From contig OZ024743.1 in the NCBI GenBank assembly GCA_964016885.1, positions 224,688,001 through 224,752,000 on the forward strand: 64,000 bases of DNA, in the 5' to 3' direction. Position 1 is the first letter of the stretch. Every line of letters starts with the position of its first letter. This document shows positions 52,631 through 60,890 of this stretch, in pieces. The DNA comes from Eledone cirrhosa (lineage: Eukaryota). The position numbers and the translations under genes were made by a program. A model generated the notes under the pieces. That model did not search any database. It worked only from the letters and a program-made list of their open reading frames with translations, and was not told the DNA's origin.

Positions 52631-53059
52631 CATAAAGAGATTACGCAATAGTGATTGCCCAAACATGAGGAGTGAATTTTTCACACGTTGTCCACACGTC
52701 ACCAAACATCTATTGCATAACTACAAGGCTACGGACTGATTCTTTGTAATTTTATTTTTAATTATTTTAATTTTATTTTCAACCTAAAAATTTTCCGGAC
52801 TTTCGCAGTTATCTCCCTTACACCACCCGCATGCAGTCAATTATTGCCTGTGTGAAGTGACCGAGTTTCTGTGCATGCACGTTCATACGGTTGTCCTTCT
52901 TGTTCCTATAAACATACACATCCCGAGCTGAAGATCCGTGAAGGTGAAACAATTGTTCTCGGTATGGTGAACTAACTGTTGTGTAACCACTTCTACCTAA
53001 CTCGTCCCTTGGACTGAGTGCTCTACCACTACGGATATTACCTTCCAGTGTTCCACCAT
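52631..53059 (+). mobile_element. Penelope-like element 3' fragment (ORF tail 52632-52739 plus pLTR)
   Basis: Tail peptide ..NMRSEFFTRCPHVTKHLLHNY* resembles the PLE C-terminus (compare LNKKSEAISAC at about 60350); it is followed by a hammerhead and flanked by TA repeats. Confidence 0.72.
52919..52966 (+). ncRNA. Minimal type I hammerhead ribozyme
   Basis: catcccgag-CTGAAGA-tcc gtgaa ggt-GAAA-c aatt g-TT-ctcggtatg; stem I pairs 8 of 9, palindromic loop III, GUU triplet. Confidence 0.82.
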
Positions 53060-56000
53060 TATATATATATATATATGAATATATATATATATATATATAT
53101 GAATATATATATATAAATATATATATATATAGAAATATATATATATATATATGAATATATATATATAAATATATATATACATATAAATATATATATACAT
53201 ATAAATATATATATATATATATGAATATATATATATAAATATATATATATAAATATATATATATGAATATATATATATAAATATATATATATATAAATAT
53301 ATATATATAAATATATATATATATATATATATGAATATATATATATAAATATATATATATATAAATATATATATAAATATATATAAATATATATATATAT
53401 ATATATATGAATATATATATATAAATATATATATATATAAATATATATATATATATAAATATATATATAAATATATATATATATAAATACATAAATATAT
53501 ATATATATATATATATATGAATATATATATATAAATATATATATATATAAATATATATATATATATAAATATATATATATATAAAAATATATATATATAT
53601 ATATATGAATATATATATATAAATATATATATATATATATATATAAATATATATATAAATATATATATATATATATGAATATATATATATAAATATATAT
53701 ATATATAAATATATATATATATATATATGAATATATATATATATGAATATATATATATATGAATATATATATATATATGAATATATATATATATATGAAT
53801 ATATATATATATATGAATATATATATATGAATATATATATATATATATGAATATATATATATATATATATGAATATATATATATATATATGAATATATAT
53901 ATATATATATGAATATATATATATGAATATATATATATATATATGAATATATATATATATATATGAATATATATATATATATGAATATATATATATATAT
54001 GAATATATATATATATATATATGAATATATATATATATATGAATATATATATAAATGTATATATATATATATGAATATATATATATATATGAATATATAT
54101 TATATATATATGAATATATATATATATATGAATATATATATATATATGAATATATATATATATTTGAATATATATATATATATGAATATATATATATATA
54201 TGAATATATATATATATATGAATATATATATATATATGAATATATATATATAAATATATATATATGAATATATATATATATATATATATATATATGAATA
54301 TATATATATATATATATATATATATATATATATATATGAATATATATATATATGAATATATATATATATATATATATATATATATATGAATATATATATA
54401 TATATGAATATATATATATATATATATATATGAATATATATATATATATATATGAATATATATATATGAATATATATATATATATATATATATAAATATA
54501 TATATATATAAATATATATATATATATATATTCATATATATATATATATATATATATGAATATATATATATGAATATATATATATATATATATATATATA
54601 TATAATATATATATATATATATATATTATATATGAATATATATATATATATATAATATATATATATATAATATATATATATATATAATATATATATATAT
54701 ATATATATATATAATATAATATATATATATATAATATATATATATATATATATATATATAATATATATATATATAATATATATATATATATATATATATA
54801 TATATATATATATATATATATAATATATATATAATATATATATATATATATATATATATATAATATATATATATATATATAATATATATTATATATATAT
54901 ATATATATATAATATATATTATATATATATATATAATATATATATATATATATAATATATATATATATATCTTTATATATATATAGTTTCAGAAGATCCC
55001 GTTAAGGGTGAAGCAGCGATTCTTTGCTTAAACTTTAATCTGTTATTTTAATAAATATTTGCTCTACGGTTCTTATATATTTGATATATATGTATCCTTA
55101 TCGAGCCCTCTTTGGATTTAGTCTTCAAATTTATTATTATTATTATTATTATTACTATATATATATATATATATATATATATATATATATATATATATAT
55201 TCATATATATATATATATATATTCATATATATATGTATATATATTCATATATATATATATATTCATATATATATATATATATATTCATATATATATATAT
55301 ATATATATTCATATATATATGTATATATATTCATATATATATATGTATATATATATTCATATATATATGTATATATATTTATATATATGTATATATATTC
55401 ATATATATATTCATATATATATATATATATTGTAAGTATGTATGTATACGTACATACATATATGTATACAGACGCACAGTAGCATGCACATATATACACA
55501 TATATATATATATATATATATATATATATATACATACATACATATACATACAGGTACACATACATATATGCACGCATCAGTTTAGCGGACGCTTATTATA
55601 ACGCCGCTTTGTTCGTTTGTCAACAAACTGAACAGCCTGAATTTATGCCATACGGTGTTAAGGCAACCACGTCACCTTTTTTTTTTTTTTTTTTTTTTTT
55701 TTTTGGTTCAACACTGACACAGGAACGATGTACTAGTTTCAAGCTTGTTAGCTATCATCAGCACCGTTTACCCATCTGCCAGATAGTTGAACGTTCGAAA
55801 GTATATACTTTCCTTATGAAAATTAACGGCTGAGCAGCCTAATTTGCATATTAAGTAAGTGCCATACTAAGAGTGAGAAATGAAATTTCGTTTTCATTTT
55901 TTTTCAACCTATATATATATTCATATATATATATATATATATATATATATATATATATTCATATATATATATATTTATATATATATATATATATGTATAT

Positions 56001-56325
56001 ATATTCATATATATATATATATTCATATATATATATATTTATATATATATATATATGTATATATATTCATATATATATGTATATATATTCATATATATAT
56101 ATATATATTCATATATATATATATTCATATATATATATATATATATATATATATATTTATATATATATATATTTATATATATATATATATATATATATAT
56201 ATATATATATATTCATATATATATATATATTCATATATATATTTATATATATATATATATATATATATATATATATATATATATATATATATATATATAT
56301 ATATTCATATATATATATTTATATA
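53060..56325. repeat. Large compound (TA)n satellite with ATGAAT/ATTCAT interruptions
   Basis: Directly visible; all the YI-rich ORFs here are artefacts of it. Confidence 0.95.
54985..55132 (+). mobile_element. Solo PLE pLTR end with hammerhead-like motif (GAA instead of GAAA)
   Basis: 54985-55057 is the reverse complement of 59281-59353 except for one missing A. Confidence 0.7.
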
Positions 56326-59060: not shown

Positions 59061-59280
59061 TATATATATATATATATATATATTCATATATATATATATT
59101 TTTATATATATATAAATATATATATATATATATATATATATATAAATATATATATAAATATATATATATATATATATATATTCATATATTACTCTTTTAC
59201 CTGTTTCAGCCATCCGGCTGAGGCCATGCTGGGGCACCACCCTTATATATATATATATATATATATATATATATATATAT

Positions 59281-60890
59281 ATTTATTAAAATAACAGATT
59301 AAAGTTTAAGCAAAGAATCGCTGCTTTCACCCTTAACGGGATCTTCTGAAACTAACAAAATCAATCTGTAAACTCAGAAGTGGATATTTCAAAAAACGTT
59401 GCAACCGGAGGAAGACAGGAAAACGATACTTTGGTTCGTGGAAACGTTCCCTGGCAAAGAATGGGAAAAAACGAATATAATACGTCATTATTTGGATTGG
59501 TGAAAAACAATTACGCACAAAGACAGAACCACGTTTATGGTATAAAAGATGTCATAGACTAATGTTCTCTTAGGTGGTTCATAGAGACGTTTTCTGGCAA
59601 TGAACGAAAAAAACCAAGATAATACGTCATATGTGGAGCGTGGAGAACAATTGCACACAAAGACAAAACCATGTAAATGGTATAGCAGAAATCGTAGACT
59701 AAAATACTAACTAGGAGACCAAATGAATCTCCACTTCAGAGTTAAGAATAAAGTAAATAAAATACAGAGGTAGTAGAAATTAAATAAATACACGCAAACA
59801 AATACGTACATACACAAGCATACGCGAAAACACTTACCATACGTATACAAAACCACTCACATATAAATATGTGTGTGTGTGTGTGTGTATACAAATAAAT
59901 AAATAATTAAATAAACGTATATAAATAAATAAATACGTATATAAGAAGCACACACACATACCTACATGTAAATACACAAATGTTCGGAGATGTAAGTCAA
60001 CCAAACCAAGAAGTACACATATACACACACCCTACATACGTGCGAACCTGCACACTCACACGGACGCAAAACTCCCGTATACACATAACCAAACCATATG
60101 TACCAGAATATATAAAAAATTATATGCCATAACATATACAATCAAATATGCGTACGAGAAAGTATACGTACCTTCACAAAACATACAGGTAATATATACT
60201 TACCTATGCAAATAAGTAATGGTATAAACAAAACATATACTTAGCTACCACATCAAGAAGTAAAATATCCACATATAGATCGTACTATCCGTTAGGGTAT
60301 AACGTGGGGCTGTAACACAGGAAAGTTTTGTGCAATTTATGTTACAAGCCGAAATTGCCTCAGATTTTTTGTTTAAGATGGGGTCTGTGGCATAGAGTAT
60401 TTCCAGGGCCTCAGCAGCGCAGAGGTCACATGGTCTTTTATTTCCGTTATACGATCTAGCCCTAGCTAGGATCTCCCAGTGTAACTTATATTGGGTGTGG
60501 TTGTCTTTTAGACTCCAGATATAAGCTGAAAGTGACGTCATATTCCTTCTTAGAGGGTAACGAAAATAATAGGTATGCATGTAAAGACGCTGCTTGAAAC
60601 TATTGGCGGTTAACCCTATGTAGGCCCTACGGGACGTGGGTGTTACAACCTTACATTTGTAGACAATGTTACTAGAGAGGCATTTCCCGGATAGGGGGCA
60701 ATCAGCCCGATTCCTACAATTACAGTTAGTACTAACTACAGGGTTGCACGTGTTCCTACGGCTAGGTAGTTTAGCTAAATTTGAAGCTGTGATGTTATGT
60801 GCAAGGTTAGGAGTTGTAGAGTAAGAAATTTTAATAGTATTTCTATTAAAAATTTTACTATATTTATGTGTAAGGGGAAAATGCACCGTA
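59281..60890 (-). mobile_element. 5'-truncated Penelope-like element (Naiad-like GIY-YIG) with about 1 kb 3' UTR
   Basis: HFP..HKYSKIFNRNTIKISYS..CNCRNRADCPLSGKC..IVYKC..YIGLT..FKQR..LSAYIWSLK..CDLCAAEALEI..LNKKSE. An apparent 1-nt deletion near 60343 shifts the terminal CxH motif. Confidence 0.88.
59303..59353 (-). ncRNA. Type I hammerhead-like ribozyme with CAGAAGA core variant
   Basis: agttt-CAGAAGA-tccc gttaa gggt-GAAA-gca gcgattctt tgc-TT-aaact; all three stems can form. Confidence 0.62.

Follow-up and report, generated by a model that had tools for sequence, protein, structure and literature searches.

Truncated Penelope-like elements and a retrozyme unit with a U6-type promoter-like block in a TA-rich tract of the Eledone cirrhosa genome

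We analyzed 64,000 nucleotides of the Eledone cirrhosa genome (assembly GCA_964016885.1, contig OZ024743.1, positions 224,688,001 to 224,752,000 of the forward strand; hereafter the window, numbered from its first letter), in which a tract at 52631–60890 combines TA repeats, ends of mobile elements and hammerhead ribozyme motifs. With a probability of about 0.8, we read this tract as TA-rich sequence that holds truncated copies of three Hydra-type Penelope-like element (PLE) families (A, B and D), one Neptune- or Nematis-type PLE (C) and one retrozyme unit (E), which likely arrived by separate insertions, E probably being carried by a PLE. The families, their TA flanks, the one-sided tails and inverted arms, the copy numbers and the predicted folds of the A, B, D and E hammerheads were observed directly. 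The locus is a pile-up of cut-short known elements in TA and is ordinary for this genome. Two results reach beyond it: E carries a promoter-like block that resembles the upstream region of host U6 genes, and the very abundant family D carries a fixed change in its hammerhead core.

An initial annotation of the window had listed four PLE-type inserts and a solo end, and all five are real. From left to right, the locus contains A (52633–53058, plus strand), a 5′-truncated Hydra-type PLE 3′ end that retains its tail; a 1.9-kb degenerate (TA)n tract, the target sequence (53059–54983); a solo 3′ end of D with a tail of ~110 nt (54984–55157, plus); E (55431–55909, minus), a single unit, bearing an inverted 55-bp tail piece at the 5′ end, of a 466-bp tandem non-LTR (long terminal repeat) retrozyme; and B (56326–56770, plus), an inverted pair of Hydra-type PLE 3′ ends with arms 99.7% identical and a tail on the right arm only. 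These are followed by a short interspersed repeat that is not related to PLEs and has many copies in the window (56876–57294); C (57363–59061, minus), a 5′-truncated PLE whose inverted arm comprises 310 bp with a tail; a 54-bp fragment of another repeat (59190–59243); D (59285–60890, minus), a 5′-truncated Hydra-type PLE without a tail; and a long interspersed nuclear element (LINE) reverse-transcriptase fragment at the cluster border (60918–61937, plus), which we take to be RTE-like. E, a sixth element with a full hammerhead, was missing from the first list. The description of the locus as one (TA)n satellite did not survive masking, after which TA-like sequence accounted for only 38% of 52631–60890; the tracts are interrupted by the short interspersed repeat, the 54-bp fragment and E.

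Insertion of the PLE ends into TA, as claimed at the outset, was confirmed at other copies in the 3.0-Gb genome. All 28 anchored ends of A ran into TA, as did 18 of 24 ends of B under a strict rule and 10 of 12 ends of C (those ends at which a tail anchor was found, from 24 loci). Reading of the flanks placed 17 of 31 D ends in TA, and the other 14 continued into the family tail; an automatic count of 3/31 was uninformative because the anchor lay upstream of the true end. A second family was present at 37 of 101 other 3-kb loci anchored on A–D, and two more at 2 of 101, which indicates that this locus is dense and not different in kind. The proposal that it is a sink for TA-targeting families therefore stands in that the ends do enter TA, but this is published behavior of the Hydra clade and is common in the genome. 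The cluster as a whole is known biology, since TA targeting, hammerheads in the pseudo-LTRs (pLTRs) and inverted stubs have been published for the Hydra clade, including Octopus (Craig et al. 2021, PMC8557442; for this and the other published sources marked by identifiers, we refer throughout to the parts available to us). More than 10 further hammerhead sequence types occur as neighbors in TA tracts (loci L002–L130; L numbers denote genomic loci that were compared).

On their motifs, A, B and D are Hydra-clade PLEs. The clade is defined by RWK, DKT, a CxCX5C linker, absence of the CCHH cysteines, CxxC and CxH, canonical hammerheads and (TA)n insertion, and it includes Hydra-1_Obim of Octopus bimaculoides with a (TA)n preference (File S1, PMC8557442). 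The three families are mutually 31–42% identical and have no significant similarity to C. The open reading frame (ORF) of B encodes 749 aa (L132) and those of D 730–745 aa (L300–L302); both proteins contain RWR, DKT, CxCX5C and CxxC and have no Cys pair between GIY and YIG. A, of which the endonuclease part only was compared, has the same endonuclease pattern. The CxCX5C linker without CCHH cysteines between GIY and YIG is thus found in A, B and D, and among the copies of A it is present in L025, while in L016 the second Cys is changed. CxxC and CxH frame the catalytic E and N: CxxC is found in all three families, and CxH is present in B and in two of the three D ORFs, and was lost by frameshift in L302 and in the window copy of D, which retains the end of the GIY-YIG ORF (60245–60890). 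A and B have a canonical type I hammerhead in the pLTR, whereas D has A at core position 4. The likeness to the published clade extends to (TA)n targeting, one-sided tails, inverted 5′-truncated arms and the frequent U.U at the base of helix II. The differences are RWR in place of RWK, longer units, the fixed U4-to-A core of D, and the A, B and D hammerheads, which diverge in sequence from the row of Hydra-1_Obim (PMC8557442). A Neptune label for A, B and D was dropped, as their motifs fit the Hydra definition instead. No Pfam family matched the PLE proteins, and the best named protein matches were from Argonauta hians and Octopus vulgaris.

By its endonuclease cysteines, C is a Neptune- or Nematis-type PLE. 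A reverse-transcriptase motif may favor Nematis. The GIY-YIG ORF of C (57890–58786, minus) has CX4CxxC together with a CCHH cysteine pair, in line with the CX2-5CxxC plus CCHH pattern of Neptune and Nematis (PMC8557442).

The initial annotation had proposed a descriptor search and an Rfam search for the hammerheads. A strict type I descriptor that tolerated any base at core position 4, run on seven segments of the locus, gave five matches: A (core 52928), B (56580 on the plus strand and 56426 on the minus strand), D (59348, minus) and E (55761, minus). In contrast to these five, the seven segments yielded a single match over 300 dinucleotide shuffles. The descriptor therefore confirmed five type I motifs, and the claim that they lie on both strands was correct (plus strand: A and B; minus strand: B, D and E), but the five include E, which had not been listed, and no C motif. 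The Rfam search found no hammerhead among 43 matches at E≤1 between 48 and 64 kb; all 43 were miRNA models below the gathering score, nearly all over TA repeats, and no hammerhead reached the gathering score in six related loci. The A hammerhead (core 52928–52934, predicted cut after 52957) has 695 exact-core copies, and that of E spans 55724–55768 on the minus strand (core 55761–55755, predicted cut after 55731). A, D and E have U.U at the base of helix II, a feature that is common among published Hydra hammerheads (File S2, PMC8557442) and is also found in axolotl HHR_Amex2 (PMC7229834). In related hammerheads from neighboring loci, paired positions of helices I, II and III have changed on both sides.

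These folds alter the earlier count of three full hammerheads in five copies. If that count meant one A, two B and two C motifs, only the A motif and the two B motifs are full. The partial motif reported in two copies is that of D: the copy at 59348 forms a complete type I fold on the minus strand, yet its core position 4 is A, and the solo copy on the plus strand (core CAGAAGA at 54990) is also one A of GAAA short. As for C, if its two copies were counted as full folds, the count was wrong. Both copies (57612, minus, and 58756, plus) have the core and helix II only; they consist of CUGACGA with an additional U, a 6-bp helix II whose closing pair is G-C, and GAAA, and a credible helix I is lacking. 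Helix I reaches at most 1–2 bp, and the descriptor gave no match for C. A helix I of at least 4 bp was likewise absent from all 30 family copies, which are nearly identical across the region concerned. Inspection by eye for a type III arrangement in the C motif found none. The layout of the motif is that given for PLE motifs by Cervera and de la Pena (PMC4209133) and recalls the atypical hammerhead of D. virilis Penelope described there in the additional base that precedes G10.1, the G-C pair that closes helix II and the 6-bp length of that helix; it differs from that hammerhead and from those of Neptune and Nematis in that helix I is no longer than 1–2 bp and there is no palindromic helix III.

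The occurrence of motifs on both strands follows from inverted, 5′-truncated arms, a standard PLE product (PMC8557442). In the mechanism that we propose, a PLE endonuclease would nick TA repeats and the reverse transcriptase would copy the RNA from its 3′ end. Reverse transcription would often stop early or turn back, which would leave short, inverted, two-stranded stubs, and the hammerheads would then be pLTR passengers without a role at this locus. The initial annotation had instead viewed the cluster as a functional site, at which ribozymes on either strand cut read-through RNA into defined pieces. The descriptor-positive hammerheads on both strands agree with that idea, as does a formin (FH2) gene that lies upstream on the plus strand with exons up to 11256 (656–829, 6910–7200, 9096–9275 and 11062–11256). 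However, no formin exon was found after 11256 in the window or in the 48 kb beyond it. In the predicted fold of the read-through RNA, the opposite arm pairs with the whole 7-base core of every B and C motif, and cores locked in this way argue against defined cutting. In addition, C is without helix I, the D core is changed, and each working family has one copy per strand, E included, with helix III palindromes that differ between families. In the E hammerhead, helix III measures 1 bp and carries a palindromic loop, and hammerheads of this type reportedly require another copy on the same molecule. Finally, the motifs at the locus are 97–100% identical to many dispersed copies and so show no sign of locus-specific selection. 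A role in cutting transcripts at this site is accordingly very improbable.

A misassembly of collapsed TA repeats would be another way to obtain such an arrangement, and long low-complexity tracts are indeed present. Against this, the end structure of each insert recurs at other loci, the C arms differ at ~1% of bases, and two or three families also share other loci, all of which makes an artefact highly unlikely. In a brief, separate check of the tails, the first end was followed by a hairpin in A and B and the second end by a weak one in B, and E has no clear twin of them.

E fits the non-LTR retrozymes, judged from the organization of its units. The unit is 466 bp long, 36% GC and non-coding (longest sense-strand M-ORF 48 aa), and it is found in tandem arrays that reach 8 or more units and often include an inverted arm. 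Each of these short tandem units has a type I hammerhead. The E monomer is predicted to be highly paired. In these respects, and in its co-existence with PLEs, E is like the metazoan non-LTR retrozymes (Cervera and de la Pena 2020, PMC7229834; Li et al. 2026, 10.64898/2026.07.22.740005), from which it differs in its size (466 bp versus ~170–400), in TA targeting with PLE-type tails and inversions, and in the promoter-like block. In 37 partly overlapping loci, 25 E ends had a ~55-nt tail into TA, 18 had no tail, 67 ran on into the following unit and 7 could not be assigned; A–D show this same two-ended pattern, the signature of PLEs. A Hydra-type PLE is the most likely mobilizer of E because of the TA targeting and the U.U helix. 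An apparent clustering of E 5′ breakpoints at the octamer-like box proved to be a query artefact, as a downstream query gave scattered 5′ ends. For E, a BLAST search gave 192 candidates, which are not copy numbers, compared with 19,827 pattern matches. A run of 28 A in the window copy (55677–55704), where most copies have 3–5 A, is an expanded homopolymer and not a poly(A) tail, and a second piece of the E tail, 43 bp long, lies between TA tracts at 62341–62385.

Several observations count against the overall account given so far. The Hydra and Neptune labels rest on motifs, the N-terminal motif of B and D is RWR and not RWK (DKT is present), and the B and D units measure ~3.3–3.9 kb, in contrast to the <3 kb typical of Hydra. 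The two-sided helix changes were seen in rows obtained with a descriptor that itself demands pairing. A family piece was also present in 4 of 18 control small-RNA-gene loci, which means that part of the clustering reflects sheer density. E showed no sequence homology to a coding PLE, its matches being to microsatellite sequence only.

The promoter-like block of E lies at 55800–55850 on the minus strand and consists of the octamer-like box TATGCAAATTAG (octamer A at 55849) and the TATA element TATATACT (55807), 42 nt apart, with TATGCAAATTAG 88 bases before the hammerhead core. A genomic search for the box-TATA-core pattern gave 19,827 matches at the spacing of E versus 7 for the control, and 11,388 versus 54 at the longer spacing to the core that characterizes related promoter-hammerhead families, that is, ~31,000 promoter-hammerhead units in five or more families. 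Among the matches listed, whose family content was taken from the first 100 places of each list, we found E and four more families, of which E2 is weakly homologous to E and E3–E5 share with E only the box, the TATA and the core. In an alignment of the five families, the box and the TATA are kept in register.

The same elements are found in host small-RNA genes. The box at −76 to −78 and a TATA at −30 were present in 7 of 15 U6 loci (three distinct promoters), with six more displaced by insertion, and in the single MRP locus; in U6atac, the box with one base changed was at this position in 1 of 5 loci, again with a TATA at −30. No box was found at −76 to −78 in U1 (0/9), U2 (0/5), U4 (0/5), SRP (0/5) or RNase P (0/1). 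The E block thus matches host U6 and MRP in both box and TATA, and its spacing falls outside the 46–48 nt of those genes. From these resemblances in sequence, we consider it probable that the octamer-like box and the TATA of E start transcription 16–29 nt ahead of the hammerhead core, by RNA polymerase (Pol) III or Pol II. Read-through of tandem E units would give multimers that cut as dimers and possibly circularize. The multimer RNA would carry the promoter of the next unit inside, so that new copies, which a PLE would insert, would keep a promoter.

Four points tell against this promoter reading. The spacing from box to TATA is 42 nt in E and 40–43 nt in the five young families versus 46–48 nt in host genes, which puts the E box ~5 bp nearer the TATA than in host U6 and MRP. 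A TATA-like box near −30 is likewise present in the U1 and U2 genes. Pol III would be halted by T4–T7 runs inside the unit before it reached the following promoter. The box folds as a hairpin in E and E2 (z −2.1 to −4.8) and could be kept for RNA structure. The last point leads to an alternative in which the octamer-like block is kept only as an RNA hairpin and E lacks a promoter, its transcripts arising by read-through from neighboring sequence. The hairpin is found in E, old E, E2 and L276 (z −2.1, −2.9, −4.8 and −3.3), and this alternative is also in keeping with the departure of the spacing from host U6 and the high pairing of the whole E monomer. It does not explain, however, why box and TATA stay in register across five families when E3, E5, E6 and several relics have no hairpin, nor why the box is that of host U6 and MRP, nor why an older family keeps the exact 47-nt spacing. 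We therefore regard retention purely as a hairpin as rather unlikely and retain the promoter reading.

A search at the host spacing gave 639 matches versus 80 for the control; some were young families detected through a second TATA and some were older, decayed units at 47 nt. Old, diverged and dispersed units with the exact U6 spacing (47–48 nt) before a partly decayed hammerhead were seen at L264, L265, L267, L274, L276, L282 and L286, in a survey of 21 loci, 14 of which were chosen by eye. L267 adjoins an apparent Ig-domain exon. Among the host genes, a U6 tandem array has, among the copies compared, 6 with a ~200-bp insertion between the TATA and the gene (L140, L141, L143–L146). The U1, U2 and most U4 genes share TCAGT near −57, likely a Pol II small nuclear RNA (snRNA) gene element, and RNase P has the TCAGT word and no U6-type box (loci L229–L236, L149–L151, L246–L249 and L263 for all of these genes).

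Hammerhead repeats with their own internal promoters have precedents in newt satellite 2, with an snRNA-type promoter and Pol II transcription, and in schistosome Sm-alpha, transcribed by Pol III; in both, as proposed for E, an upstream unit drives the next (the newt promoter is cited in PMC2220036, and the schistosome and newt transcription in PMC6765202). E differs from both in that its box matches host U6- and MRP-type genes and is accompanied by a TATA, in belonging to another phylum, and in the number of units and families. How animal retrozymes are transcribed is not stated in the parts available to us of either retrozyme paper (PMC7229834; Li et al. 2026); within these parts, the word "promoter" has 0 matches in the latter and 2 unrelated matches in the former. 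The main text of the 2026 O. vulgaris repeat annotation has 0 matches for ribozyme, hammerhead or retrozyme. A literature search, limited in its coverage of subscription papers, found no description of these retrozymes or of a U6-type block in retrozymes, and PMC6155905 and PMC10886601 contributed nothing further.

The second result concerns the hammerhead core of D. Position 4 was A in all 42 copies compared, and the U4-to-A core had 21,743 exact genomic matches. Three D copies with 730–745-aa ORFs carry the A form, and L300 has it in both pLTRs. The T form (U in the RNA) had 694 genomic matches; it was considered as an ancestral canonical subfamily and rejected, as 6 of 6 checked were inversion junctions. 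D often inverts at a 7-bp near-palindrome within the hammerhead core (L288–L293, the same six checked matches), and the solo D end in the window begins a few bases upstream of this inversion site. Changes at U4 slow hammerhead cleavage. We lean slightly toward the reading that the D hammerhead is inactive in cleavage and that D, like the Naiad PLEs, propagates independently of self-cleavage. The uniformity of the A form, its presence in copies with full-length ORFs and the nature of the T-form matches all point in this direction, and no hammerhead row of File S2, in the parts of that source available to us, has A at core position 4 (PMC8557442). On the other hand, the fold is otherwise preserved, including a helix III of 4 bp, and this points to function in the recent past or to a change that is tolerated. 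Hammerhead function in endonuclease-containing (EN+) PLEs is described as unclear by Craig et al. (PMC8557442), and our literature search, with the same limited coverage of subscription papers, found no description of a U4A core.

Elsewhere in the window, an intronless ORF at 33050–33628 (plus) matches translation initiation factor IF-3 (PF05198, E 3.5e-9) and is possibly mitochondrial IF3 or a retrocopy.

Taken together, these results suggest, tentatively and at slightly less than even odds, that the retrozymes captured a host U6/MRP-type upstream promoter, half a helical turn shorter in its young form, that their ~31,000 units are self-transcribing, self-cutting parasites of Hydra-clade PLEs, and that D spreads with a changed core. 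The cluster itself adds little; its two side results, the E block and the D core, make open questions testable. E offers a defined, mutable box and TATA shared with host U6 and MRP, and the box is absent from that position in U1, U2 and U4. D is young and very abundant, and its fixed core change can be assayed alongside A and B. If the reading of D is true, this PLE end, which with ~21,700 copies had the highest count here, spreads despite a changed core and would be a natural test of whether PLEs need self-cleavage.

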